Positions 1 through 59,185 of a DNA stretch of 64,000 nucleotides are shown in pieces. The translations under genes and the position numbers were made by a program. How positions within the stretch are numbered: the stretch's first letter is position 1; every line of letters starts with the position of its first letter. The DNA lies in NCBI GenBank assembly GCA_030531305.1, contig JAUNNT010000001.1, positions 9,830 to 73,829 on the forward strand, given 5' to 3'. Source of the stretch: Akkermansia sp. Its GTDB lineage: Bacteria > Verrucomicrobiota > Verrucomicrobiia > Verrucomicrobiales > Akkermansiaceae. The notes under the pieces are model-generated. The model had not been told where the DNA came from and ran no database searches. It saw nothing but the letters and a program-made list of their open reading frames with translations.

Positions 1-1383
1 GTCCGCGGCGGGCATGCGGCAGGGCAGGGCGTCGCCGTCGGATTCACCGCCCAGCCAGGCGCGCTCGGCCATGGCGAGCATGCCGGGCCACTGCGCGCTG
101 TGGCGGGCGATGTTGCGCTTGTCGTCCACGCGGGTGTCCGGCCAGTTGCAGATCATCGGCCCAAGCTTCTTCTCGTCGCCGCGGGTGCTGCCGCACGGGC
201 GCATGAAGAAGTAGCGGCGCACCAGCAGCGCGGGGTCGAACAGGTTGGTGTAGCCCATGGTGGAATCGAAGCTGCGGCACACCACAGTCTCCGGCTTCAG
301 GGACTTCTCCACCATCTCGCCGCCCTCGCCCCAGCGCTGGCAGATGGAGTCCTCGCCCACGGGTAAATCCCGCGGGCCGCCCCACTGGGCGGGAATGCGG
401 CCGCGCGCGATGAGGAAGTCGCTCATGCGCTTCACGAATTCCTTGGCGTTGGGGATGCGCACCTCGTCCGCGCCCAGGTGGACGATGGGGCACATCTCCT
501 TGGGCACCTCCTTGCAGAATTCATCCAGCAGCTCCTCCAGTATCTTCATGCCTTCCTCGGTGTGCATCTTGAACCCGAAGCAGCGGTCGAAGTACGAGCT
601 GTGTCCCGGCATGTCCAGCTCCGGGATGATTTGGATGTTGCGGTCCGCCGCGTACTGGAACAGGTCGCGTATCTGCGCGTAGGTGTAGGTGTCGTTCACG
701 TCGCGCGTGCGCTTGGACGGGTCGTTGAGCACGGGGCGGCACTTGCACTGCACATGCCACGCCGGGTGGTCCGTGAGGTGCCATTGGAAGTGGTTCACCT
801 TAAAGCGCGCAGCCAGGTCGAGCTGGTGCTTCAGGCTGTCGATGGTCTGGAAGTTGCGCCCGCAGTCGTGCATGAACCCGCGCATGGCGAACGCCGGCCA
901 GTCCACGATCTCGCAGCAGGTCAGCCCCTTCTTGTCGCCCGCCACCATCTGCCGCAGCGTTTGGATGCCGTTGAACAGGCCCGCCTCCCGCGCGGCGGCA
1001 ATCTGCACGCCCTTGGCGGTGACCTTCATCCTGTAGCCCTCCGCAGCGTTCTCCGGCGCCGTGGCGGCGGAATCAATCTTGAGGATCACCTTCAGCGCCG
1101 GGGCGTCCGCCGAGCCGCGCGTCTTCACATCCCCCGCCAACCCCGCCATGGCGGTGCGCACCATGCGCCCCTTGGTGTCGCCGTGGGCATCCAGCGCTTT
1201 GCCGAACGCCAGGTTGCCCTGTTTCCACTCCACCTTCTGCGGGAAGGGCAGGAGGTTGCACGGGGCCTGAATCTCCGCCTGTTCGGGGATGGGGGACACC
1301 CATTCGGCGCGCGCCTGTGGCATCCAGGCCGCCAGTCCGCATGCCGCCAGCATGCTCATCGCTATCTTTCCGGCTTTCGTCAT
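1..1383 (-). CDS. Beta-N-acetylhexosaminidase, GH20 family (3' part runs off the window)
   Basis: Manual translation from ATG at 1383: signal-like N-terminus, then NLLPFPQKVEW, EGYRMKV..GLFNGIQTL, IVDWPAFAMRGFMHDCGRNF, FQWHLTD, matching GH20b + GH20 catalytic domains. Absent from the ORF track because there is no stop inside the window. Confidence 0.9.
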   Translation of the reverse strand, partial: MTKAGKIAMSMLAACGLAAWMPQARAEWVSPIPEQAEIQAPCNLLPFPQKVEWKQGNLAFGKALDAHGDTKGRMVRTAMAGLAGDVKTRGSADAPALKVILKIDSAATAPENAAEGYRMKVTAKGVQIAAAREAGLFNGIQTLRQMVAGDKKGLTCCEIVDWPAFAMRGFMHDCGRNFQTIDSLKHQLDLAARFKVNHFQWHLTDHPAWHVQCKCRPVLNDPSKRTRDVNDTYTYAQIRDLFQYAADRNIQIIPELDMPGHSSYFDRCFGFKMHTEEGMKILEELLDEFCKEVPKEMCPIVHLGADEVRIPNAKEFVKRMSDFLIARGRIPAQWGGPRDLPVGEDSICQRWGEGGEMVEKSLKPETVVCRSFDSTMGYTNLFDPALLVRRYFFMRPCGSTRGDEKKLGPMICNWPDTRVDDKRNIARHSAQWPGMLAMAERAWLGGESDGDALPCRMPAAD

Positions 1384-5863: not shown

Positions 5864-8002
5864 TCATCCTGTGACGGCCCGCTCCTCCTCGTCCCGCACC
5901 AGCTCGCGCAGCGGCGCGTGTTCCGGCATGGAAAGCCCGGGGTCGGCGTCCAGGATGGCGTTGGCATCCCTGGTGCCGCGGTGGATGAGGCGGATGTCCG
6001 CCAGCCATTCCGGGAAGCGCACCGCTCCCAGCCCGCTCTGCGCCGTGCCCAGCACGTCGCCGGGGCCGCGGAGTTTGAAATCCTCCTCCGCAATCTCGAA
6101 TCCGTTGTTGGTGCGGCAGAGCACGTTGAGCTTGTCCAGCCGCTCGTCGCCCTTCTTGAGCTTGGAGAGCAGGATGCAGTAGCTCTTGTGCGCGCCGCGG
6201 CCGATGCGCCCGCGCAGCTGGTGCAGCTGGGAGAGGCCGAAGCTGTCCGCATCGTTGATGAGCATGATGGTGGCGTTCGGCACGTCCACGCCCACCTCCA
6301 CCACGGTGGTGGCCACCAGGATGTGCGTTTTGTTGGCGCGGAAGTCGCTCATCACGGCCTCCTTTTCGTCGCCCTGGATGCGGCCGTGCAGCAGACCGAT
6401 GCTCTCGTTCGGGAAAATGGTTTTCCAGTGTTCCAGCTCGGAGACGGCGGCGGCGTGCGCGCGCTTCTCGCTCTCCTCCACCAGGGGGGAGACGATGTAG
6501 ATCTGCCGCCCCGCCTGCAGCTCCGATTCCATGAAGGCGATGATGCGCTTCATGTGCGCGGGGTTGCGCAGGGCGGTCACTATCTCCCCGCGCCCGGCGG
6601 GCATCTCGTCTATCACGGAAACATCCAGGTCCCCGTACAGGGTGAGCGTGAGCGTGCGCGGGATGGGCGTGGCGGTCATCACCAGCACATCCGGCGCCGT
6701 GCCGGCGGAGGAGATGAACCGCTCCCTCTGCTCCACGCCGAACTTGTGCTGCTCGTCCACCACGGCCAGCCCCAGGTTCTGCGGGCGGTTCTTCTTGTAG
6801 AGCAGGGCGTGCGTACCCACCAGCAGCCGCGGCGTGCGGTCCGCCTCCGCCGGGTTGTCCAGCTGCAGGCTCCCCGTGTCGTCCGCGCGGTCGGATGTGC
6901 GCAGCGACACGCGGACATCCGTGTGCGCCAGCAGGCGGCAGAAGTTCTTGTAGTGCTGCTCCGCCAATATCTGCGTGGGCGCGATGAGCGCGGCGGTGTA
7001 CCCGCTGCCGATGCAGTGCAGCATGGCGCAGAGCGCCACCAGGGTCTTGCCGCTGCCCACGTCCCCCTGCAGCAGGCGGTTCATGCGCCGCGGGGATGCC
7101 ATGTCTGCGCGTATCTCCGCCATGCAGCGCTTCTGCGCCTCCGTGGGCGCAAAGGGCAGGGAGGACAGCAGCTCCTGCACGTAGGCGTCGTCCGTGGCGG
7201 TCACCATGCCGCCCTCCTCCCGCGCGCGGCGGCGGCGCCATGCCACGCGGAACTGCTGGGCAAAGCACTCCTGCAGGGCAAAGCGCATGCGCGCCTTCTT
7301 GTGCAGCTCCTCCTCCGCGGGAAAGTGGATATCTTGGAGCGCCTGGCGGTAGGGGTACTTGGGTGCCACGTCGTACCCCTCCGGCGCGAGCTGCGGCGGC
7401 AGCTGCTCCAGCAGCTTCCACACCAGCGTGCGGTAGGCGCGCGGCGGCATGCCCGCCATGCCGCGGTAGATGGGAACGATGCGCCCGGTGTGGATGAGCG
7501 TGGGCTGGCCCGGCGCTTCCGGCGCGGGCAGGCGTGGGCCGCCCATGGCGGCCTGCACGAGCCGTTGCCCGGCGTCCTCCTCCTCCATCTGCTCAAAGTC
7601 CGGGTTCACCATGACGAGCCTGCCGCCGTACTCCTTCACGCGGCCGTAGATGAACAGGTTCATCCCCACCGCCAGCAGCTTCGCCACGTACGGCATGTTG
7701 AACCACCGCAGCGTCAGACGCGCCCCGTGCGGGTCGTCCGCCGCCCCCACGGAAAGCTCGTAGTATTTCTTGTAGGAGAACTTCCACCCCGCCGTGTACA
7801 CATGCACCTGCAGGCACACCGTCTCACCGTTCTGCACGCCCGCCACGTCGCCGCTGCGCCTACGGTCCTCGTAGCGCCGCGGCATCCGCATCAGCACATC
7901 CCCCACCGTCTCCAGTCCCGCCGCCTGCAGCGCCTTCAGCTCCCGCGGCGCCAGCCACGGCAGCGTGCCCAGGGCGTCGCCCTGCTGTACCGGGGCGTTC
8001 AT
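5864..8002 (-). CDS. recG: ATP-dependent DNA helicase RecG
   Basis: PRRYEDR wedge domain, RLLQGDVGSGKT, VVDEQHKFG, MTATPIPRT, LHQLRGRIGRG, DFKLRGPGD. Start is ATG 8002 or TTG 8017. Confidence 0.95.
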   Translation of the reverse strand: MNAPVQQGDALGTLPWLAPRELKALQAAGLETVGDVLMRMPRRYEDRRRSGDVAGVQNGETVCLQVHVYTAGWKFSYKKYYELSVGAADDPHGARLTLRWFNMPYVAKLLAVGMNLFIYGRVKEYGGRLVMVNPDFEQMEEEDAGQRLVQAAMGGPRLPAPEAPGQPTLIHTGRIVPIYRGMAGMPPRAYRTLVWKLLEQLPPQLAPEGYDVAPKYPYRQALQDIHFPAEEELHKKARMRFALQECFAQQFRVAWRRRRAREEGGMVTATDDAYVQELLSSLPFAPTEAQKRCMAEIRADMASPRRMNRLLQGDVGSGKTLVALCAMLHCIGSGYTAALIAPTQILAEQHYKNFCRLLAHTDVRVSLRTSDRADDTGSLQLDNPAEADRTPRLLVGTHALLYKKNRPQNLGLAVVDEQHKFGVEQRERFISSAGTAPDVLVMTATPIPRTLTLTLYGDLDVSVIDEMPAGRGEIVTALRNPAHMKRIIAFMESELQAGRQIYIVSPLVEESEKRAHAAAVSELEHWKTIFPNESIGLLHGRIQGDEKEAVMSDFRANKTHILVATTVVEVGVDVPNATIMLINDADSFGLSQLHQLRGRIGRGAHKSYCILLSKLKKGDERLDKLNVLCRTNNGFEIAEEDFKLRGPGDVLGTAQSGLGAVRFPEWLADIRLIHRGTRDANAILDADPGLSMPEHAPLRELVRDEEERAVTG

Positions 8003-8017
8003 GGTCGGAACAATCAA

Positions 8018-8701
8018 TCAGCGGTTGGGGCGCCCGTTGTTGATGCAACGGTAGTAGTAGTCGATGCGCGAGAGGAACCACGCCCACTTGGGGCCGGGGC
8101 GCCCGTTGGTCATCAGCGGCGCGGGGCAGTTCTTGCGCGTCCAATGGTAGTGAGGCACCACGTGGCGCAGGTTGATGCGGAAGCGCTTCATCAGCACCGC
8201 CGTCAGCTTCGCCGCGCGGTTCCACGTGCGGTAGTGGTTCTGCCCCAGGCTCTCCGCCTCGCACATCTCGATGCCGATGGAGTTGTTGTTGCCGGCCGCG
8301 GTGCCCGCGTGCCAACCCGTCTCGTTGAGCGGCAGGTTCTGCACCACCATGTACTGGTCCGCCGTGAAATGCCAGCTGCGGTTGGAAATGGAACCGTTCG
8401 TCAGCGCGCGCGAATGCTGCAGCGCCGTGGCCGACATGGAGTGGTTCGCCGTGCTGTGGATGGTGATGAACGTGGGCCTCAGGCGCTTCGCCGCGCGGCG
8501 TGGGCGCGACTTGGGCGACATCATGCGAACCTTGATGTTGCACTCCCGCGCCAGGCGCTGCATGGTGCGCGGCACCAGCGTCTGCGTGGCGGGCGTGAAC
8601 TTGTATCCCCGCGGCGTCCGCAGGTACGGGTTCTGTATGCACCCCATCAGCCCCACCAGCGTCAGCGCCGCCACCGTGGCTATCTTTCGCATCCCTAGCA
8701 T
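8018..8701 (-). CDS. N-acetylmuramoyl-L-alanine amidase (Amidase_2), probable lipoprotein
   Basis: ITIHSTAN, SWHFTAD, WHAG, SIGIEMCE, HYHWTRKNCP zinc-amidase motifs; lipobox LMGC. Confidence 0.88.
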   Translation of the reverse strand: MLGMRKIATVAALTLVGLMGCIQNPYLRTPRGYKFTPATQTLVPRTMQRLARECNIKVRMMSPKSRPRRAAKRLRPTFITIHSTANHSMSATALQHSRALTNGSISNRSWHFTADQYMVVQNLPLNETGWHAGTAAGNNNSIGIEMCEAESLGQNHYRTWNRAAKLTAVLMKRFRINLRHVVPHYHWTRKNCPAPLMTNGRPGPKWAWFLSRIDYYYRCINNGRPNR

Positions 8702-12668: not shown

Positions 12669-12710
12669 GGGGGTGTGGATACACGCCAACGCCCGCTTAC
12701 CAACCACCAC
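12669..12710 (+). repeat. Partial copy (3' end) of the three-hairpin dispersed repeat
   Basis: GGGGGTGTGGATACACGCCAACGC matches the ends of copies at 55258-55277 and 58995-59016. Confidence 0.8.
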
Positions 12711-12780
12711 AAAAACGCCCCGCAAGGCACTAGGCCGAGCGGGGCGGTTCATTCACGCGCGCAACGCGCGCCTAACTTTC

Positions 12781-12813
12781 AAATTGTAAATCGTAAATTG
12801 TCAATTGTAAATT
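12781..12813. repeat. Heptamer tandem repeat (AAATTGT)n, about 4.7 units
   Basis: aaattgt aaatcgt aaattgt caattgt aaatt, read directly. Confidence 0.85.
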
Positions 12814-12824
12814 ACGCCGCGGCG

Positions 12825-14147
12825 TCATTCGTTGTCGATACGGATCATGCCGTAGGAATCGCGCTTGTCGCCGTTGTCGAAGATGATGTAGACGTGGGGT
12901 TCCTTGAGCTTGGACTCGGCGGTGACGGTGTAGCTGTTGTTGCGGGGGGAGCCGGAGGCCTCGCCCTCGTGCTCGTCCTCGGAAACCAGCTCCTCGCCGT
13001 CGTAGAGCATCACCTTCTTGATGCGCAGCGGGTCCTTGCCCTTGTGGTACATGAACTGCAGGGTGTAGGAGCCGGCATCGGAAATCGGCAGGTCGCCGCG
13101 CAGCAGGATGGGCGTGTTGTCGTCCGGGATGCCGCGCGGGGTCCAGCCCTCCGCGTAGTTGAGCTTCCAGCTCCACACGTCCGGCACCACCTTGGCGCTG
13201 CGGCCCAGCAGGGATTCCGGGTCCAGCTCGGCCATGCGCTTGCACCACCGGGGAATCTGGAGGCTGCCCTTGTAGCCGCCGTCGCGGTGGAGCACGCCGA
13301 TGACGGCGGCGCACATCTCCTGCTTCTGCACGGCGGTGTAGGCGTTGTCTTCAAGCTTGCCCTCCACCTCCTTGATGACATCCTGAATGGCGGCCCACCT
13401 GGCGTCCTTGGAGCTGCAATCGGCCACCTGCTTGCGCTTCTCGCCGGCGAAGCCGAGGCCGTCGAAGGTGACGCGGCGCACATAGCCGCTCCCGTCCTCC
13501 GGGTCCAGCTCCTTGAGCTTCTCCGCCACCTTGTCCGGGCGGTTGATGCCCTCCATTGTGGCGGCCTCGCCCAGGTACTTGGCGGCCTCCGCGCCGGATG
13601 CCGCGGCTGACTTCTTCAGCAGGGCCTCCTGCTGGTGCAGCAGCTCCAGCTTGCCCGCAACGTCCGCCGCAATGTCCGCGACAGGGCGGGTGAGCATGTC
13701 CGGGCCGTACACGTCCGCGTAGTGGCGGCCGTCCTTGTCGAAGAACATGATGGCGGGGTAGGTCTCGTCATGGAACCCGCGGTTCTTCTCCGGGATGGGT
13801 CCCCAGAATGCCTCCTGCTCCTTCTTCACCTTGTCCGTGACGTTCTGGTAGACGGGCGCGAGCAGCAGGCGCGCGCTTCCAGCGGCCTTCTGGATGTCCG
13901 CGTTGGTGATCCACGCCTTGGCGAAAGACTCGCTGTAGCGGTCCCAGTCCGCGGCGTAGGCGAAGGCGATGTAGCCGTCGTCGGTGACGGATTCCTTGGC
14001 CTTGGTGAAGTTTTCCGCCTGGTTGGGGCTCTGCGCGCCTGCGGCGGGAGCGGTGGGCGGCTGCGGCTCCACGGGGGGAGCCTCTTTCTTCTGTTCGTGG
14101 CAGCCCGCCATTCCGACGGCGAGCGCGAGTATCATAAGCCTTTTCAT
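12825..14147 (-). CDS. Hypothetical lipoprotein: Cys-less thioredoxin-like N-domain and beta-sandwich C-domain
   Basis: Lipobox GMAGC; FAYAADWDRYS at the usual WCxxC position and YPAIMFFDKDG; C-terminal YTLQFMY..G...L.IKKV.L...SEDEHEG. Confidence 0.7.
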   Translation of the reverse strand: MKRLMILALAVGMAGCHEQKKEAPPVEPQPPTAPAAGAQSPNQAENFTKAKESVTDDGYIAFAYAADWDRYSESFAKAWITNADIQKAAGSARLLLAPVYQNVTDKVKKEQEAFWGPIPEKNRGFHDETYPAIMFFDKDGRHYADVYGPDMLTRPVADIAADVAGKLELLHQQEALLKKSAAASGAEAAKYLGEAATMEGINRPDKVAEKLKELDPEDGSGYVRRVTFDGLGFAGEKRKQVADCSSKDARWAAIQDVIKEVEGKLEDNAYTAVQKQEMCAAVIGVLHRDGGYKGSLQIPRWCKRMAELDPESLLGRSAKVVPDVWSWKLNYAEGWTPRGIPDDNTPILLRGDLPISDAGSYTLQFMYHKGKDPLRIKKVMLYDGEELVSEDEHEGEASGSPRNNSYTVTAESKLKEPHVYIIFDNGDKRDSYGMIRIDNE

Positions 14148-38702: not shown

Positions 38703-39950
38703 ATGGGAGAAAACCAGATAGGCGTGTACTCGGCATTGCCCGGCGGCGGAACTGCCATCCGGGTGGGGACGTTGTGGAGCGGCGGCAATCGCGGGCGCGA
38801 GACCGCCCGGTTCGAGTACGACTCCGCATGGATTGCCCACCCGCAGGGGTATGCGCTGGAGCCTGCCCTGCCGCTGGTGCGCGGTGTTCAATTCACCCCG
38901 CGCGGATTGTTCGGCAGCATGGCGGATTCCGCGCCGGACCGTTGGGGGCGCACCCTGATGAAGCGGGCGGAGGCTGCGCGCGCACGGGCGGAGGGTGTGT
39001 CGCCCCGCCGCCTTTCAGAGGCAGACTACCTCCTGCGCGTGAACGATGAGGCGCGTCAGGGAGCCCTGAGATACAGCCTGGATGGTGGAGTGAGCTTCAT
39101 GGACAATGATGCGGCGCGCGCCGTTCCTCCGTTGGTGGAGCTGCGCAGGCTGCAGCATGCTGTGGACAGCACGGTGGAGGACAATGCCACGGATGAGGAT
39201 TTGCGGCTGTTGCTGGCTCCCGGTTCATCGCTCGGTGGAGCCTGGCCCAAGGCGTGTGTGCGGGATGAGCGGGGACGTCTCTGCATAGCCAAGTTCTCGC
39301 GCGTGGACCAGGAGTATGATGTGGTGGCGTGGGAGGCCGTGGCGCTCAGCCTTGCGCGAGCCGCCGGCTTGAACATGCCGCCCTTCCGGCTGGAGTCCCT
39401 GCTGGTTGGCGGCAAACGCCGCCACGTCCTGCTGGTGGAGAAGTTCGACCGCGGAGCGGCTGGGGAACGCATCCCGTACATTTCCGCCATGACCATGCTG
39501 GATGCAGGCGACGGTGACCGCCGCAGCTATCTGGAGCTGGTGCAGGGTATGCTCCAGCACTGCATCCAGCCCCGGCGCGATTTACCGGAACTGTGGCGGC
39601 GCGTGGCCTTCAGTCTCATGGTGTCCAACACGGACGACCACTTGCGCAACCACGGGTTCCTGCGCCTGCAACCCGGTGGTTGGACACTTTCCCCGCTGTT
39701 CGATGTCAATCCCACGCCGCCGGATGTTTCCCCGCGGGTGTTGACCACCCCGCTCACGCCTGATGGCGGGGATGCAACCCGCGCCGCCCTCCTGGAATGT
39801 GCAGGGCAATTCTATTTGCGCGGGCATGAAGCCATGGATGCGTGGCGGCAAATCGAAAGGGCCGTTGCCGGTTGGCGCACGGTCGCGGCGGGCTTCCGCA
39901 TCCCCAGGAGGGAGCAGGAGCGTATGGCCGCTGCCTTTTTCCTTGCCTGA
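38703..39950 (+). CDS. hipA: HipA-family Ser/Thr kinase toxin
   Basis: FEY, DSAPDRWGR, GALRY, GSSLGGAWPKA, IAKF, NTDDHLRNHGFL, LSPLFDVNP. Confidence 0.92.
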   Translation: MGENQIGVYSALPGGGTAIRVGTLWSGGNRGRETARFEYDSAWIAHPQGYALEPALPLVRGVQFTPRGLFGSMADSAPDRWGRTLMKRAEAARARAEGVSPRRLSEADYLLRVNDEARQGALRYSLDGGVSFMDNDAARAVPPLVELRRLQHAVDSTVEDNATDEDLRLLLAPGSSLGGAWPKACVRDERGRLCIAKFSRVDQEYDVVAWEAVALSLARAAGLNMPPFRLESLLVGGKRRHVLLVEKFDRGAAGERIPYISAMTMLDAGDGDRRSYLELVQGMLQHCIQPRRDLPELWRRVAFSLMVSNTDDHLRNHGFLRLQPGGWTLSPLFDVNPTPPDVSPRVLTTPLTPDGGDATRAALLECAGQFYLRGHEAMDAWRQIERAVAGWRTVAAGFRIPRREQERMAAAFFLA

Positions 39951-53784: not shown

Positions 53785-53880
53785 GGTCTGTAAGCGCGCG
53801 CATGTTACCACCCCCGCGCGCGCGTGTCAAGTTTTTTCACTGCCGGTTGCATGTGCCGCGCGGCGTGGTATAATGGGCGC

Positions 53881-54816
53881 GTGATGGGTGACGACCCCGC
53901 AGAGCAGCCCGATGTGGTGGTGGTGCGCTTCCTGGCGTTCATGGAGGCGGAGAAGAACGCGTCCCCGCGCACGCTGGAGGCCTACCGGCGCTCGCTCGGG
54001 CAGTTCCGCGGCTGGATGGGGGAACGCTTCGCCGCGTGGGAGGACTGCGCCACCGGGGATTTCCGCGCCTGGCTGTACGAGGCCTTGGAGCAGGAGCTCA
54101 AGCCCGCCACCATCCGCCTGCGCTTCGCCGCCCTGCGCTCGTTCTACCTCTACCTCATGCGCCGCGAGGGGCTGGCTTCCAACCCGCTGGAGACCCTCGC
54201 CCTGCCCAAGGCGCGCCACAGCCTCCCCGTGCACCTCAACATCTCCCAGATGGAGGAGCTGCTGGCCCTGCCGCTCAACACGCCCGTGGACAAGAAAAGC
54301 CCCGCCTGGCTGCCGCTGCGCGATGCCGCCATCCTGGAGCTGTTCTACTCCTGCGGCATGCGCTTGAGCGAGCTGGTGAGCCTGAACGAGGACGCCCTGC
54401 AGGCCGATGCCGACTGCGTGCGCGTGCTGGGCAAGGGCCGCAAGGTGCGCCTCATCCCCGTGGGCGACTACGCGCGAGAGGCCATCGAACGGTACCGCGA
54501 GCTCGCCGGGCTGGAGCCGCGGGGGCCGCTCTTCATCAGCCGCCTGCGCCGCCGCATGACCGGCCGCAGCATCCAGCTCATGCTCGACAAGTACCTGCGC
54601 ATCTCCAGCATCCCCTTCCACATCTCCCCCCACAAGTTGCGCCACACCTTCGCCACCCACATGCTGGACGCCGGGGCGGACCTGCGCTCCGTGCAGGAGC
54701 TCCTAGGCCACGCCTCCCTCTCCACCACGCAAATCTACACCCACGTCACCAAGGCACGCCTCAAGGAGGCCTACCTCAAGGCACACCCCCGCGCCGATTG
54801 GAACCAGGGGGAATAG
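53881..54816 (+). CDS. xerC: Tyrosine recombinase XerC/XerD family
   Basis: S.RTL.AY, LRD.AILELFYSCGMR.SEL, GKG.K.R, HKLRHTFATH, LLGHASLSTTQIYTHV. Confidence 0.88.
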   Translation: MMGDDPAEQPDVVVVRFLAFMEAEKNASPRTLEAYRRSLGQFRGWMGERFAAWEDCATGDFRAWLYEALEQELKPATIRLRFAALRSFYLYLMRREGLASNPLETLALPKARHSLPVHLNISQMEELLALPLNTPVDKKSPAWLPLRDAAILELFYSCGMRLSELVSLNEDALQADADCVRVLGKGRKVRLIPVGDYAREAIERYRELAGLEPRGPLFISRLRRRMTGRSIQLMLDKYLRISSIPFHISPHKLRHTFATHMLDAGADLRSVQELLGHASLSTTQIYTHVTKARLKEAYLKAHPRADWNQGE

Positions 54817-54847
54817 GCGCTCGGAGAGGTGCTGCCCTTGATTCGGT

Positions 54848-54950
54848 GCCGCCTCACGGCACCTCACCCCCTGCGGGGGCAAACGCGCTTCGCGGTTTGT
54901 CCAATCCGCCTTACCGCGCCGCAAGCGGCGCGCCCCTCCGGGGGCCGTCG
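54848..54950. repeat. Cluster of short GC-rich hairpins (REP-like)
   Basis: GGTGCCG-n5-CGGCACC, CCCC-TGC-GGGG, CAAAC...GTTTG, GCGCCGC-AA-GCGGCGC, CCCC-TCC-GGGG. Confidence 0.6.
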
Positions 54951-54956
54951 GCGGCT

Positions 54957-55066
54957 TTGGCGTGTATCCACCCCGCACAAGGCGGGGTTCCGTGGTGGGT
55001 ATGCGAGGGTGGTCAACCCCACGGTTCTACCGTGGGCTAAAAAATGTTGAGCCTCCTATGAGGCTC
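54957..55066 (-). repeat. Three-hairpin dispersed repeat, copy A (left arm of REPIN-like inverted pair)
   Basis: Reverse complement reads GAGCCTC-ATAG-GAGGCTC-AAC..TAGCCCACGG-TAGAA-CCGTGGG...CCCACCACGGAAC-CCCGC...GCGGGGTGGATACACGCCAA. Confidence 0.85.
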
Positions 55067-55164
55067 CCATATAGCCGCGCCATTCGGCGCGGAAGCGGAT
55101 GCGTTTCATCTGGCAACATGCCAGATGAAACATATTGTTGCGCGGCTCCGCCGCGCCTAGCTTT

Positions 55165-55277
55165 GAGCCACCTTGGTGGCGTCAACTTTTCCTAGCCCCG
55201 GGCGAAACCCGGGGGCATAACCACCCATGCATACCCACCACGGAACGCCCCCGTATGGGGGTGTGGATACACGCCAA
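55165..55277 (+). repeat. Three-hairpin dispersed repeat, copy B (right arm)
   Basis: GAGCCAC-CTTG-GTGGCGTC-AAC..TAGCCCCGGG-CGAAA-CCCGGGG...CCCACCACGGAAC-GCCCCC-GTAT-GGGGGTGTGGATACACGCCAA. Confidence 0.85.
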
Positions 55278-55365
55278 GGGTGGCAGCTCTCCGAGCGTTG
55301 TTTTTTTGCCGCGTTGCAATGCGGCAGTTTATGTTCCACCCATACCCCCCCCTCGGCACGCCAAT

Positions 55366-55396
55366 AAAAAACCGCCCGGCGCAAACCGGGCGGTTT
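55366..55396 (-). terminator. Intrinsic terminator of rplY
   Basis: Stem AAACCGCCCGG / CCGGGCGGTTT with an A-tract on + (U-tract on -). Confidence 0.8.
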
Positions 55397-55421
55397 CGGG
55401 TTGAATGATGATGTCTGCGCG

Positions 55422-55973
55422 TTAGGGCTTCACCACAGAGGCGAGCACCACCGTGCCGTTGTACGGCGTGGTCACGTTCGCGGGAAGCTCCACCTGCGCC
55501 ATGCGCAGGGACTCGTCCAGCTGCAGCGCGGAGATGTCCGCCTTCACGCAGCAGGGAATGTCCTTCACCGCGCACTTGACCGGCAGGTCATAGATGATCT
55601 GGCTCACCTGGCCGCCCATGGCCACGCCCGCGGGCGTGCCGGTCAGCTTCACCTGAACCTTCGTCTTCACCACGGTCTCGGGAGTCACCGCCTGGAAGTC
55701 CAGGTGCGTCACGCCGTCCTTCAGCCAGTTGCGCTGAATGTCCTTCACCAGTGCAAGAACCGCCTTGCCGTCCAGATCCAGGTTCACCAGGATGCTGTCG
55801 TTGTCGGCCTCGTTGAGCAGGACGCGCACGTCCGCGGCCTTCGCCTGCACGTTGATGTTCTCCTGTCCGTTGCCGTAGATCACGCCGGGGATGATGTCCT
55901 GGGCGCGGAGGGCGTTCAGCTTGCCGGTTCCGACTGCCTCGCGCTTGCTTACCTTGAGGGTATGCTTCGTCAT
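55422..55973 (-). CDS. rplY: 50S ribosomal protein L25/general stress protein Ctc
   Basis: R...G....ALR....IPGVIYG, LVKDIQR......H.DFQ, GTPAGV..GG, C....IP. Confidence 0.94.
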   Translation of the reverse strand: MTKHTLKVSKREAVGTGKLNALRAQDIIPGVIYGNGQENINVQAKAADVRVLLNEADNDSILVNLDLDGKAVLALVKDIQRNWLKDGVTHLDFQAVTPETVVKTKVQVKLTGTPAGVAMGGQVSQIIYDLPVKCAVKDIPCCVKADISALQLDESLRMAQVELPANVTTPYNGTVVLASVVKP

Positions 55974-56247
55974 TTTCTTATGTCTTTCTATTTTGTTTGA
56001 AATGATGGTTTGTTTGGAGTTCATCCGACGTCGGTGAGCGGCTGTGTCTCACCCGCCGGGATAGCACGCCCATGCCAGCGTGACAAAGGCGGACCCCCAA
56101 TTTAGCCCCCATTTCGGAAATGTCAAGGAAAATTCGTAAAAATCAACCTAAATTTCATGCATTCAGCCCAAAACGGTGTGGGCCGGTGTGGGCGTGCGTA
56201 ACCAATCCCACCCGTTGACACCAATCAATTCACCCACCCCCGCCAAC

Positions 56248-56276
56248 AAAAAAGGCGCAGGGGAACCTGCGCCTTT
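56248..56276 (-). terminator. Intrinsic terminator of the flavodoxin gene
   Basis: Stem AAAGGCGCAGG / CCTGCGCCTTT, 4-nt loop, A-tract on +. Confidence 0.8.
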
Positions 56277-56300
56277 CGGGAAAAATCCTGTTTGCAACCG

Positions 56301-56900
56301 TTACTTGCGGATGGTGACAATGGAATCCACCCAGTCGGTGACGGATTGCTTGGAATCGCCGATGGTGGCGCCGGGGAAGGCACCGCCCTTCAGCACGGCG
56401 GCCTTGGAGAGCAGCTCCGCGGCGTCCTTCTCGCAGCGCGCCATGCCGCCGCTGCCGTGCGTCACGAACAGCGCCACCTTCTTGCCCGTGAAGTTGTGCT
56501 TCGTCAGGAAGGTGCGGACGGGCGGCGCTATCGAGCTCCACCAGTTGGGCGTGCCCACAAAGATGAGGTCGTACTTGGTCAAATCAATGCTGGCGGGCTT
56601 GATGGCGGGGGTCTGCTCCTGCTGCACCTCGTCCTTGGCCTGTTTCACGCATGCATTGTAGTCGGACGGGTAGGGCTTGGCGGGCGTTATCTCCAGCAGG
56701 GTGCCGCCGGTGTGCTCCGCTATGTACTCCGCGGCCTTGCGCGTGTTGCCACTCCACGAGTAGTACACCACGAGCACGCGCTCCTTGTCCACCACGGGCT
56801 TTTCCGGCGCCGCGGCATCCGTCTGCTGGGCCGTGGCGTTGTCTGCTATCAGGGCTGCGGCGGCGGCCAGCGCCGCGAATATCTTGGCTATCGTTTTCAT
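56301..56900 (-). CDS. Flavodoxin (Flavodoxin_4 type) with N-terminal signal peptide
   Basis: VVYYSWSGNT, YDLIFVGTPNWW, PPV.TFL, F.THG.GG; Ala-rich signal peptide. Confidence 0.9.
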   Translation of the reverse strand: MKTIAKIFAALAAAAALIADNATAQQTDAAAPEKPVVDKERVLVVYYSWSGNTRKAAEYIAEHTGGTLLEITPAKPYPSDYNACVKQAKDEVQQEQTPAIKPASIDLTKYDLIFVGTPNWWSSIAPPVRTFLTKHNFTGKKVALFVTHGSGGMARCEKDAAELLSKAAVLKGGAFPGATIGDSKQSVTDWVDSIVTIRK

Positions 56901-57050
56901 TGAAACAGGGGGTGACGCGCGCATTTTACCAACTTGCCTGCCCCTTGCAAGCGAAATTTGAGCATGCATGTCAAAATGGCGCACAAAATTCTCCCGCCCT
57001 CCCAAGAATCGGCTTGCGGCGGCGCGGCGGGTGTGTTAGGATACGCGCGT

Positions 57051-57749
57051 ATGAATACGCGTTTCACCCACCGTTCCGCCAAAGGCTTTACCCTTATCGA
57101 GCTCCTTGTGGTCATCGCCATCCTGGCCACCATCGCCGGCATTGCCTTCCCCGTCTACATGTCCGTTCAGGAGAACGCCAAGAAGACGGCCGCCAAGAAG
57201 GGCTGCACGGACCTGGTGGAGGCCTGCACCCGATACTCCCAGGACTACAACGGCATGATGCCCTACGACACCCGCGCCACACAGCCCGACGAGCAGGACC
57301 AGATCTACCTCACCACCGAGGGCGACAAGGACGCACGCCTGATTGCCGTGCTGACCAACCGCGAGGGTGACGACGCCGACCGCATCAACACCACGCACGA
57401 TACCTACCTGCGCGCGGACGAGCAGGCCGCCAAGCTCAACGGCCTTTATGTGAAGGACGACGACATCGGCTACTACGACGCCTGGGGCAAGCCGTACTAC
57501 GTGACCATCAACGAGACGGACGAGGGCGCCTTCGACCCCTTCGACGAGAAGAACCGCGTGCGCGGCAAGAAGTGCCTCGTCTACAGCACCGGCCCCAACA
57601 TGGAGGGCGTCGCCGCCCCGCACAACACCCAGCCAAAGGCCAAGAAGTCCTCCAAGAAGGGCGGCAAGAAAAACAAGAAGAACGCCGTGGATGAGGAATA
57701 CCTCGAGCAGATCGAGGACAACATCTACTCCTGGAAGAGCGTCAAGTGA
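57051..57749 (+). CDS. Prepilin-type N-terminal cleavage/methylation protein (type II secretion/type IV pilin-like)
   Basis: KG|FTLIELLVVIAILATIAGIAFP; D.WG.PY and YS.GP motifs typical of GspG-like proteins. Confidence 0.9.
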   Translation: MNTRFTHRSAKGFTLIELLVVIAILATIAGIAFPVYMSVQENAKKTAAKKGCTDLVEACTRYSQDYNGMMPYDTRATQPDEQDQIYLTTEGDKDARLIAVLTNREGDDADRINTTHDTYLRADEQAAKLNGLYVKDDDIGYYDAWGKPYYVTINETDEGAFDPFDEKNRVRGKKCLVYSTGPNMEGVAAPHNTQPKAKKSSKKGGKKNKKNAVDEEYLEQIEDNIYSWKSVK

Positions 57750-58807
57750 ACAATCCGTTCCTTACAGACGACGTCCGCATCACGGACATCCGCCCGCTGA
57801 TTTCCCCGGCCATCCTGATGCAGGATTTCCCGGCTTCGGATGAGGCCCAGAAGCTCGTGTTCGACGCCCGCGCGGCGTTCCGCAAAATCCTCAAGGGAGA
57901 GGACGACCGCCTCGCGGTCATGGTCGGCCCCTGTTCCATCCACGACACCGTGGCGGCCATCGACTACGCCCAGCGCCTGGCGGAGGTGCGCCGCAAGTAT
58001 GAGGACGACCTGCTCGTCTTCATGCGCGTGTACTTTGAGAAGCCCCGCACCACCGTGGGCTGGAAGGGGCTCATCAACGACCCCTACATGGACGGCACGT
58101 ACAACATCAACAGCGGCCTGCGCATCGCGCGCGGCCTGCTGGTGCGCCTGGCGGAAATGGGCGTGCCCGCCGCCACCGAGTTCCTGGATGTCATCACACC
58201 GCAGTACATCAGCGATCTGGTGTCCTGGGGCGCCATCGGCGCACGCACCACGGAAAGCCAGGTCCACCGCGAGCTCGCCAGCGGCCTCTCCATGCCCATC
58301 GGCTTCAAGAACGGCACCTCCGGAAACATGCAGATCGCCGTGGACGGCATCATCTCCGCCGCTCACCCCCACAGCTTCCTCTCCGTCACCAAGCAGGGCG
58401 TCTCCGCCATCGTCTCCACCGCAGGGAACGACAGCTGCCACATCATCCTCCGCGGCTCATCCCAAGGCCCCAACTTCGGCGAGGAATTCGTCGCCAAGGC
58501 CTGGAACATCCAGCAGCGCGCAGGTATCGACAGCCGTATCATGATCGACTGCTCACACGGCAACAGCCACAAGAAGTGGCAGGAGCAGCCCGACGTCGCC
58601 GCCGACATCGCACGCCAGCTCGCCGCCGGCTCCCGGTGCATCGGCTCCGTCATGATTGAAAGCAACCTCTGCTCCGGCAACCAGAAGTGCCAAAAGCCCC
58701 TCAAGTACGGCGTCAGCATCACCGATGCCTGCATCGACTGGGACGGCACCCTCGCCATGCTCGATACCCTCGCCAAAGGCGTCCGCTCCCGCAGAAACGC
58801 CAAATGA
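57746..58807 (+). CDS. aroG: 3-deoxy-7-phosphoheptulonate (DAHP) synthase, class I alpha
   Basis: GPCSIHD, MRVYFEKPRTTVGWKGLINDP, AIGARTTESQVHRELASG, IGFKNGT, DCSHGNS, SITDACI. Confidence 0.95.
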   Translation: MNNPFLTDDVRITDIRPLISPAILMQDFPASDEAQKLVFDARAAFRKILKGEDDRLAVMVGPCSIHDTVAAIDYAQRLAEVRRKYEDDLLVFMRVYFEKPRTTVGWKGLINDPYMDGTYNINSGLRIARGLLVRLAEMGVPAATEFLDVITPQYISDLVSWGAIGARTTESQVHRELASGLSMPIGFKNGTSGNMQIAVDGIISAAHPHSFLSVTKQGVSAIVSTAGNDSCHIILRGSSQGPNFGEEFVAKAWNIQQRAGIDSRIMIDCSHGNSHKKWQEQPDVAADIARQLAAGSRCIGSVMIESNLCSGNQKCQKPLKYGVSITDACIDWDGTLAMLDTLAKGVRSRRNAK

Positions 58808-58902
58808 CCCGCCCCGCCAATTTTGAGCCGCCTTGTCGGTGACAACCTTTTCCCCGCAGGCCACGGCGTAGCTTTAGCGTAGACGGAAGGCGCGCTCTGA
58901 TA

Positions 58903-59013
58903 GAGCCACTCAGGTGGCGAACTCAAATTTAGCCCCAGGTGGAAACCTGGGGGGTGTCCCCGTACGCCATCCCACCACGTAACCCCGCCCCGTGCGGGGT
59001 GGATACACGCCAA
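58903..59013 (+). repeat. Three-hairpin dispersed repeat, copy C (plus a degenerate first-hairpin unit at 58822-58851)
   Basis: GAGCCAC-TCAG-GTGGCG..TCAAA-TTTAGCCCCAGG-TGGAAA-CCTGGGG...CCCACCACGTAAC-CCCGC-CCCGT-GCGGGGTGGATACACGCCAA. Confidence 0.85.
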
Positions 59014-59185
59014 CGCATGTCTACCCACCACCCCTGTTCCCGCCAATCAACCACCCGAAATTTTCTTCGCCCCTTACGCATTGGCATTGCGTGCCTTGCA
59101 AACCCGCCGCGATTTTTTTTGAAAAAAATGCATTTTTTGTTGTGCATTTCGCCTTTTGGGTGCTTAATGGGGTATAGACAAGCGC

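Follow-up and report, generated by a model that had tools for sequence, protein, structure and literature searches.

A hairpin-run repeat of Akkermansia as the probable arm of a REPIN-like mobile DNA element linked to TnpA_Y1 subclass 1.2 transposases

In this study we analyzed a stretch of 64,000 nucleotides of Akkermansia sp. DNA (hereafter the window), which corresponds to positions 9830-73829 of contig C77 of the draft genome that we designate G000 (2.31 Mb, 109 contigs, 63.7% G+C, 93% complete). An initial annotation of the window had pointed out a family of repeats with three hairpins, for which it gave three copies (A, B and C), a partial copy (D) and a separate first-hairpin unit. Here we present evidence that there is good reason to regard this repeat as one arm of a mobile DNA element that is non-autonomous and REPIN-like and that would be mobilized in trans by a Y1 HUH transposase belonging to subclass 1.2 of TnpA_Y1. 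The idea of a non-autonomous single-stranded DNA (ssDNA) element served by an HUH nuclease had been raised in that annotation, and it is strengthened by three findings: Y1 genes that are flanked by units of the repeat, doublets of units that lack a gene, and the co-occurrence of repeat and gene (p = 0.0012).

Each arm consists of a G+C-rich run of hairpins, H0-H1-H2-H3, of 120-150 nt that is closed by the tag GGAT-NNN-CGCCAA, and the whole element is an inverted pair of arms of roughly 300-450 bp with a spacer of 55-95 bp. Units were scored with the covariance model R1, built from 44 full-length genomic units (alignment A3). Copies A, B and C, which show a mean column identity of 82% when aligned, lie where the initial annotation had placed them, the R1 matches being 110.6 bits at 54949-55072 (minus strand), 112.1 bits at 55159-55285 (plus strand) and 116.2 bits at 58897-59021 (plus strand), respectively. 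Together, A and B make up a single doublet of 321 bp (A/B), the only complete one in the window; C is a solitary arm whose partner is truncated, and D is a solo tag.

Transposase genes bordered by the repeat

As stated in the initial annotation, there is no transposase gene in the window; three are present elsewhere in the same genome. A search for a TnpA-type gene flanked by copies of the repeat found Y1 HUH genes on contigs C4 and C22 and a partial one on C101, each of them flanked by units:

C4, 7785-8258, minus strand: Y1_Tnp gene between units at 7653-7772 (minus) and 8336-8456 (plus)
C22, 193-660, plus strand: Y1_Tnp gene between divergent units at about 1-125 (minus) and 677-830 (plus)
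C101, 2-160: partial Y1 gene, truncated at the contig end; next come hairpin H0 and one unit belonging to the abundant subfamily

The C4 and C22 genes score 51.3 and 49 bits with PF01797 (Y1_Tnp), whose cut-off is 23, and encode proteins of 158 amino acids with the motifs EDH(V/I)H, WQ and Y(I/V)xxQREHH. The Y motifs of the three genes read YIARQREHH, YVITQREHH and HYIATQREHH, that of the partial C101 gene being preserved. Quentin et al. (2018, PMC6006769) gave DH[IV]H / WQ / YIKNQKEHH, a length of about 148 amino acids and a low copy number as the signature of subclass 1.2 of TnpA_Y1, and judged by these motifs the enzymes of G000 would belong to this subclass. They share with it the three motifs, a length of about 150 amino acids, the low copy number and the low identity within a genome. 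The same authors listed the subclass as "REP: no" and found it mostly in Cyanobacteria and Bacteroidetes; in contrast, the genes described here are flanked by proliferated hairpin repeats, and their hosts are Verrucomicrobiota and Acidobacteriota. Among 28 homologues translated from other genomes, an automatic motif search recovered the full signature in 25; two of the other three show Y-x3-Q-x2-HH by eye, and the third is truncated. The homologues from outside Akkermansia also have a C-terminal FQEEY..FL.K..I.YDE[KR]YVWD, a conserved tail that is absent or divergent in Akkermansia, the proteins of G000 included. In a sequence search of the PDB the C4 protein gave no match to E. coli TnpA_REP and only marginal matches to proteins of the IS200 type (E about 0.06-0.9). 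Copy number is not always one: another Akkermansia species, G190, has six subclass 1.2 genes, two of which (C24:35344-35802 and 39424-39882) have identical scores and lie 4 kb apart.

The relation between genes and repeats is a specific one. Each transposase gene has its own subfamily of repeats, and the paralogues within G000 are only about 40-62% identical. The orthologous genes in the related genomes G003 and G001 are likewise flanked by R1 units. Of the eight more distant Akkermansia homologues that we examined, which are about 37-42% identical, seven have hairpin-rich inverted repeats of their own, 56-161 nt long, on their flanks, and the eighth, at locus L011, showed none. In addition, the arms of the C22 gene have copies of 90-96% identity on about ten contigs, where they are arranged as doublets of a left arm and a right arm. 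One of these, C39:3945-4305, is 90-93% identical to C22 positions 1-128 and 680-831 but has a spacer of about 82 bp in place of the gene core of 551 bp, which is what would be expected of a transposase locus and its non-autonomous derivative. The arms beside the genes are thus those of the doublets, and a doublet has the appearance of such a locus in which a short spacer stands where the gene would be.

The orientation of the arms differs between loci. H1 is outermost around the transposase gene at L010 (G019), L016 (G006) and L157 (G028); in G000, G001 and G003 the arms are turned round, the tag lying on the outside and H1 on the inside. The H1 and H3 hairpins of G006 resemble paralogues of each other, and each of them is followed by GGCATAA.

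By analogy with the TnpA proteins of IS608 and ISDra2 and with E. coli TnpA_REP (PMC3479197, PMC6006769), the transposase would recognize the folded hairpins in ssDNA, for instance on the lagging-strand template, and its tyrosine would mediate cutting and rejoining at conserved single-stranded motifs, leaving no target-site duplication. Cleavage may take place at the CGCCAA terminus, which is often the point at which the similarity of copies stops, at the TCAAC that follows H1, or in the loop of H3, where solo tags begin.

The repeat population: structure, distribution and orthologous sites

The repeat is abundant in G000. With nhmmer, an HMM made from the three window copies matched the 2.31-Mb genome 91 times at E<1e-3, and R1 identified 81 units, many of them at contig ends. 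The covariation of the stems, which had been noticed in the window copies, is confirmed by the 44 full-length units: 98.7% of the cells are standard pairs and 10 of the 19 pairs are changed on both sides. None of 500 shuffles reached the observed values, and partners that were slid along the alignment were paired in 35-61%. Nearly all of the changes go from one Watson-Crick pair to another; among 830 cells there are eight G:T and one A:C, and this excess in unit orientation is a weak hint that the strand in unit orientation is the one that folds.

The main arrangement is that of inverted (-,+) doublets with the GGAT-NNN-CGCCAA tags pointing outward, of which there are at least 13 complete ones, and the gaps of the doublets fall into two classes, about 55-59 bp and 92-95 bp. 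The long spacers carry an additional central hairpin with a 13-bp stem. Regarding the arms, RNAalifold recovers all three hairpins of the layout initially proposed, but a fourth, the inner GC hairpin H0, is also present in each arm; it lies on the inner side of nearly all of the 46 listed units, its sequence being variable and its pairing kept. The 5' feet of H1, H2 and H3 are of the form A(G/A)CC (GAGCC, (T/C)AGCC and (G/T)AACC, respectively). The terminal GGATACACGCCAA, which had been called invariant, is so within the window, but genome-wide it reads GGAT(ACA/TCA/TAG/GAG)CGCCAA. The segment between H2 and H3 exists in at least three versions, and the abundant family with the short spacer always pairs a type i arm with a type ii arm; therefore, the doublet, and not the unit, is what gets copied. 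Two repeated modules are common beyond CGCCAA, and further small repeats are nested in or beside the arms, so that the architecture of the element is mosaic, like that of bacterial interspersed mosaic elements (BIMEs). Folded as ssDNA, the A/B doublet has an energy of -127.7 kcal/mol, compared to -65.1 +/- 4.5 kcal/mol for shuffled sequences (z=-14). Finally, about ten solo tags that start in the loop or the 3' stem half of H3 are present genome-wide, and these could mark a cut site or be the scars of recombination.

All but one of 31 elements are intergenic. The statement that all copies lie 3' of genes is correct for the window, but it does not apply to the genome as a whole: according to a crude call of open reading frames (ORFs), 15 of 30 elements lie between convergent, seven between tandem and eight between divergent genes.

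R1 detected the repeat only within the genus, where its distribution is patchy: 12 of 25 Akkermansia genomes contain it, with 81, 79, 27, 27, 16, 16, 9, 8, 4, 3, 2 and 1 copies, and all 16 genomes sampled from other families of the order lack it. A homologue of the gene accompanies the repeat in 10 of the 12 positive Akkermansia genomes and is also found in 2 of the 13 repeat-free ones (table 10/2/2/11; Fisher p=0.0012).

We compared filled with empty sites in relatives of G000; for one such pair a global MAFFT alignment was uninformative, and two local alignments took its place. The relatives considered in this study are 10-30% diverged. Three sites of presence/absence were found:

G000:C50, filled with 403 bp; 25 bp in G003:C91
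G000:C43:6108-6317, filled with 210 bp; 13 bp in G003:C108
G000:C52:11386-11797, filled with 412 bp; 25 bp in G001:C5

These sites would reflect insertion or deletion; the additional DNA exceeds one unit or one doublet. At 10 of 13 other sites the flanks lie on different contigs in both relatives. Target-site duplication was not found: the longest string shared by the flanks was 8.1 nt for the same site versus 7.5 nt across sites, with the exception of one direct repeat of 15 nt at the doublet on C67. Since direct repeats in the flanks are no more frequent than by chance, the data fit HUH transposition and speak against a MITE (a miniature transposable element with inverted repeats) moved by a DDE transposase.

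A clean empty site for the window's own elements was not found in G003, synteny breaking exactly at the repeats. When positions 53800-59800 of the window are compared to G003, the closest relative of G000 (C57, C73, C1, C117 and C121; about 90% identity), the gene order is broken precisely at the repeat elements, and on G003:C57 the gene to the left of the A/B doublet is joined directly to the gene that forms the left flank of the doublet on G000:C67. This suggests that the repeats mediate rearrangements.

Relation to RF01687 and to known mobile elements

At gathering thresholds, Rfam gave no match in the window. At relaxed thresholds, however, the reverse strand of H2-H1 matches RF01687 (Acido-Lenti-1) in every unit tested. 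G000 contains 45 such matches (E<0.1), all inside units, with 19-32.7 bits against a gathering score of 37 (22.4 bits in the window), and the congener G190 reaches the cut-off with 40.5 and 37 bits. The family had been presented as undescribed; this is correct only in part, because H2-H1 consistently resembles RF01687 below the threshold, and other Akkermansia species pass it. Weinberg et al. (2010, PMC2864571) annotated RF01687 as a likely RNA, and papers of 2026 still describe its function as unknown. Literature searches yielded no paper that ties Acido-Lenti-1 to transposases and none that ties Akkermansia to REP/RAYT. The likeness includes the 8-bp stem with its 4-nt loop, the GGCUA with an A/U-rich linker, and the second hairpin, which together correspond to the reverse strand of H2-H1. 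Unlike RF01687, the Akkermansia arm has H0, H3 and the terminal tag in addition, its matches in G000 are all below the gathering score, and we interpret it as mobile DNA, whereas Rfam treats the family as a small RNA (sRNA) of unknown function.

RF01687 and the subclass 1.2 genes co-occur in Verrucomicrobiota and in Acidobacteriota. Out of 301 Verrucomicrobiota genomes, 40 have RF01687 at E<=1e-4 (26 pass the cut-off, including three other Akkermansia species) and 48 have a homologue of the subclass at E<=1e-15. The gene is present in 31 of the 40 RF01687-positive genomes versus 17 of the 261 negative ones, which gives an odds ratio of 49 (p=3.9e-22) with kinship ignored. The positive Verrucomicrobiota have multiple copies of RF01687, often as inverted pairs. 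In 7 of 18 loci scanned, RF01687 lies about 60-400 bp from the gene, in four of them on both sides, and coordinates place it near the gene at six further loci; altogether, there are about 16 loci in 13 genomes with RF01687 beside the gene, often on both sides and in (-,+) orientation. A chance sample of nine Acidobacteriota genomes gave the same picture: the four that are positive for RF01687, with 4-28 copies each and up to 64 bits, are exactly the four that are positive for the gene, and at G345:C18 and G346:C22 RF01687 lies on both sides of the gene in (-,+) orientation, at about 50-130 bp. From this association, RF01687 is probably the core recognition module of subclass 1.2 transposases, and the Akkermansia arm may be an enlarged version of that module. 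We lean, with more reserve than for the Akkermansia element itself, towards a wider view: RF01687 would in essence be a REP-like module of hairpins belonging to a REPIN-like system of mobile DNA that is run by subclass 1.2 TnpA_Y1 and spans Verrucomicrobiota and Acidobacteriota, the Akkermansia arm with its three or four hairpins being an expanded derivative.

The Akkermansia system resembles the REPIN-RAYT system, or REPtron (Nunvar 2010, PMC2817692; Bertels & Rainey 2011, PMC3116915; Ton-Hoang/Messing 2012, PMC3479197), in several respects. Firstly, a low-copy Y1 HUH gene lies between inverted hairpin repeats, with one repeat family per gene. Secondly, the same repeats are dispersed in intergenic regions as inverted doublets with a short spacer. 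Thirdly, the distribution is patchy within the lineage, and there is no target-site duplication. On the other hand, the enzyme is of class 1 (Y-x3-Q-x2-HH), whereas RAYTs are of class 2 (Y-x3-NP; groups 2/3 of Bertels); the arm has 120-150 nt and three or four hairpins, whereas a REP is one palindrome of 20-40 nt; the feet are A(G/A)CC without the 5' GT[AG]G tag of REPs; the doublets measure 300-450 bp, whereas REPIN doublets have roughly 70-110 bp; and the host is a verrucomicrobial gut genus. The system thus works in a REPIN-RAYT-like way, but it is a variant and not a member, because it conforms neither in the class of the enzyme nor in the form of the REP. It also shares with TIRYTs, or TIRtrons (Di Nocera et al. 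2013, PMC3733652), a Y1 gene within long inverted repeats and the capacity to form dimer families; TIRYTs, however, are mostly of subclass 2.1 and have a helix-turn-helix tail and a GGGGWSAS motif, whereas GGGGTGAC is present in only some of the units described here.

It is possible, although we regard it as unlikely, that we are dealing with an ordinary, still autonomous insertion sequence (IS) of the IS200/IS605 type together with gene-less derivatives, the palindrome-associated transposable elements (PATEs), rather than with a domesticated RAYT-like system. Such elements have the same Y1 HUH chemistry, hairpin-bearing ends, gene-less derivatives and insertion without target-site duplication; the enzyme is a class 1, IS200-like one with the Y-x3-Q motif, and the six homologues of G190, with two of identical score 4 kb apart, would suit an autonomous IS. 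However, the C4 and C22 proteins stay below the NCBIfam cut-off for IS200 (NF033573; 36.4 and 34.5 versus 55 bits). Instead of near-identical multiple copies, the genes are divergent paralogues, each with its own repeat family, and the arms are inverted copies of each other, not distinct left-end (LE) and right-end (RE) hairpins on one strand. Inspection of the ORFs at the C4 and C22 loci showed no tnpB adjoining the genes, and the ratio of about three genes to 80 units is that of REPINs.

A second and somewhat less likely alternative is that the units are genes for structured RNAs or cis-elements (an sRNA like Acido-Lenti-1, a terminator or an mRNA stabilizer) and that the adjacent transposases are incidental; a structured RNA was the other option named in the initial annotation. 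The resemblance of H2-H1 to a family annotated as a likely RNA (PMC2864571), the strong compensatory changes, the excess of G:T over A:C in one orientation (8 versus 1) and the location of half of the elements between convergent genes agree with this. Yet the units form inverted pairs and occur in both orientations, so that no single transcript orientation fits, and 8 of the 30 elements lie between divergent genes. Moreover, the units border HUH genes in Akkermansia, and in the form of RF01687 they do so in at least 12 further genomes, the doublets match transposase loci from which the gene has been deleted, and units break assemblies and differ by presence or absence between species. A secondary role at the RNA level alongside mobility, as REPs have, could coexist with the REPIN-like nature of the element. 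As to a DDE-moved MITE with long terminal inverted repeats, inverted termini of about 120 bp whose outermost 13-15 nt are conserved would be in keeping with it, but it is hardly credible given that target-site duplications are lacking, that all of the genes found with flanking arms code for Y1 HUH proteins, and that compensatory change maintains hairpins within the arm that a DDE terminal inverted repeat does not need.

Several points weigh against the proposal of a REPIN-like element mobilized by a subclass 1.2 enzyme. Two repeat-bearing genomes, 80% and 88% complete, have no detected gene, and two gene-bearing genomes have no R1 match. The difference between filled and empty sites includes the outer extension modules and so does not mark the ends of the mobile unit, and the genomes compared at these sites are 10-18% diverged, with synteny often broken at the repeats. 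Identity between the flanks of the C4 gene and dispersed units is only 76-89%, and the C101 gene, the presumed cognate of the most abundant subfamily, is truncated at the end of its contig. Compared to G019, G006 and most of the loci outside Akkermansia, the arms are turned the other way with respect to the gene. Lastly, the assignment to subclass 1.2 is based on motifs and not on the HMMs of Quentin et al.

If the proposal is correct, the principle of REPIN and RAYT, i.e., a low-copy HUH enzyme that maintains a population of hairpin repeats, extends to another branch of Y1 enzymes, namely subclass 1.2, the branch next to IS200 that had been reported to be repeat-free. This would argue either that this lifestyle arose more than once or that it predates the class 2 RAYTs. 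The abundant orphan family RF01687 would gain a concrete and testable function, and its case is a warning that "sRNA" motifs supported by covariation can be recognition structures in ssDNA. For Akkermansia genomics, the repeats explain contig breaks, coincide with breakpoints of synteny between species, and could serve as strain markers.

Repeat features of the window and smaller modules

The repeat-related features of the window are as follows, the two modules that are common beyond CGCCAA being referred to as type-1 and type-2 extensions:

12669 to about 12713, plus strand: solo tag D, with GGGGGTGTGGATACACGCCAA (containing the 3' stem half of H3) at 12669-12689, then the type-1 extension
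54809-54830, minus strand: outer type-2 extension module (reverse complement of GGGCAGCACCTCTCCGAGCG), split from arm A by a nested insertion
54831-54953: nested family 2 repeat of about 120 bp, hairpin-rich, at the terminus of arm A (blastn: 18 matches on 15 contigs)
54957-55066, minus strand: arm A (R1 and unit alignments); read on the plus strand, tag TTGGCGTGTATCC 54957-54969, H3 54970-54988, H2 55017-55039, H1 55049-55066
55067-55164: spacer of the A/B doublet, with the inner GC hairpins H0' 55075-55092 and H0 55140-55156
55103-55131: central hairpin GTTTCATCTGGCA-ACA-TGCCAGATGAAAC in this spacer, with a 13-bp stem
55165-55277, plus strand: arm B, with H1 55165-55180, TCAAC 55182-55186, H2 55193-55215, H3 55246-55263 and tail GTGGATACACGCCAA 55263-55277
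55278-55327, plus strand: outer type-2 extension GGGTGGCAGCTCTCCGAGCGTTGTTTTTTTGCCGCGTTGCAATGCGGCAG
58825-58853, plus strand: truncated arm consisting only of H1 (GAGCCGCCTTGTCGGTG; hairpin 58825-58841) and the T-rich spacer
58853-58895, plus strand: small repeated module CCGCAGGCCACGGCGTAGCTTTAGCGTAGACGGAAGGCGCGC (5 matches; found in doublet spacers too)
58903-59013, plus strand: arm C, with H1 58903-58918, H2 58930-58954, H3 58981-58999 and the tail to 59013; nearest units C52_11530 and C31_40941 (79-81% identity)
59014-59056, plus strand: outer type-1 extension CGCATGTCTACCCACCACCCCTGTTCCCGCCAATCAACCACCC, a module present on about 30 unit termini

Copy D, which had been taken for a partial copy, is related to the repeat, but it consists of a solo terminal tag with the repeated extension and has no arm body (R1 11.9 bits, E=0.19). 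Similarly, the first-hairpin unit reported near 58822 does contain H1, but it is a truncated arm. The TCAA motif, which the initial annotation had likened to a cleavage tetramer of the IS605 type, is shifted in copy C. In clustering at 83% identity, arm B groups with the unit to the right of the C4 transposase gene, C4_8336, to which it is 81% identical. The central hairpin of the A/B spacer has 23 matches on 14 contigs of the genome and is shared with doublets of the C22 type. The type-2 module at 54809-54830 follows about 25 unit termini genome-wide and lies within the DNA that is missing from the empty site in G003, and the type-1 module is part of the inserted DNA at G000:C43:6108-6317.

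Units C65_20809 (C65:20809-20962) and C67_8481 (C67:8481-8635) are about 35 nt longer owing to an inner segment, which is related to the CCGCAGGCCACGGCGTAGCTTTAGCGTAGACGGAAGGCGCGC module (CGGCGTAGC...GACGG motif). The module CGGCGTAGC-n-GCGTAGACGG, which occurs in spacers and has this related segment within two normal units, looks like a still smaller mobile hairpin.

Family 2 (...GGTGCCGCCTCACGGCACC...CCGCGCCGCAAGCGGCGCG...) is a second repeat that is unrelated to the arms and has copies in G003 and G001 as well. The contig end G000:C20:32-203 is 99-100% identical to positions 54819-54990 of the window, which span the junction between family 2 and arm A, and thus represents either another copy of this composite or an overlap in the assembly. 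Another module, at 12745-12830 of the window, consists of a GC hairpin, CTAAC and an A/T-rich stretch made of CAATTGTAAAT-like repeats, in this order. This module is very abundant (72 blastn matches on 47 contigs), often lies directly 3' of stop codons, and in some elements stands in for H1-H2 of the arm, running straight into the GGCGGGGTGGATACACGCCAA tag.

Two observations concern neighboring sequences. Outside the repeat element, at 55368-55400 on the minus strand, there is a hairpin that resembles a terminator and has a T-run; it lies immediately downstream of the ORF at 55422-56024 (minus strand). The ORF at 59186-60658, downstream of copy C, has a partial paralogue of 88% identity at G000:C77:76671-77249 and multiple matches of 65-75% per genome across the genus, and its translation contains YD/RHS-like repeats (…YDDDGNQTRIKTSTGIWDVTYNAKNRP…).

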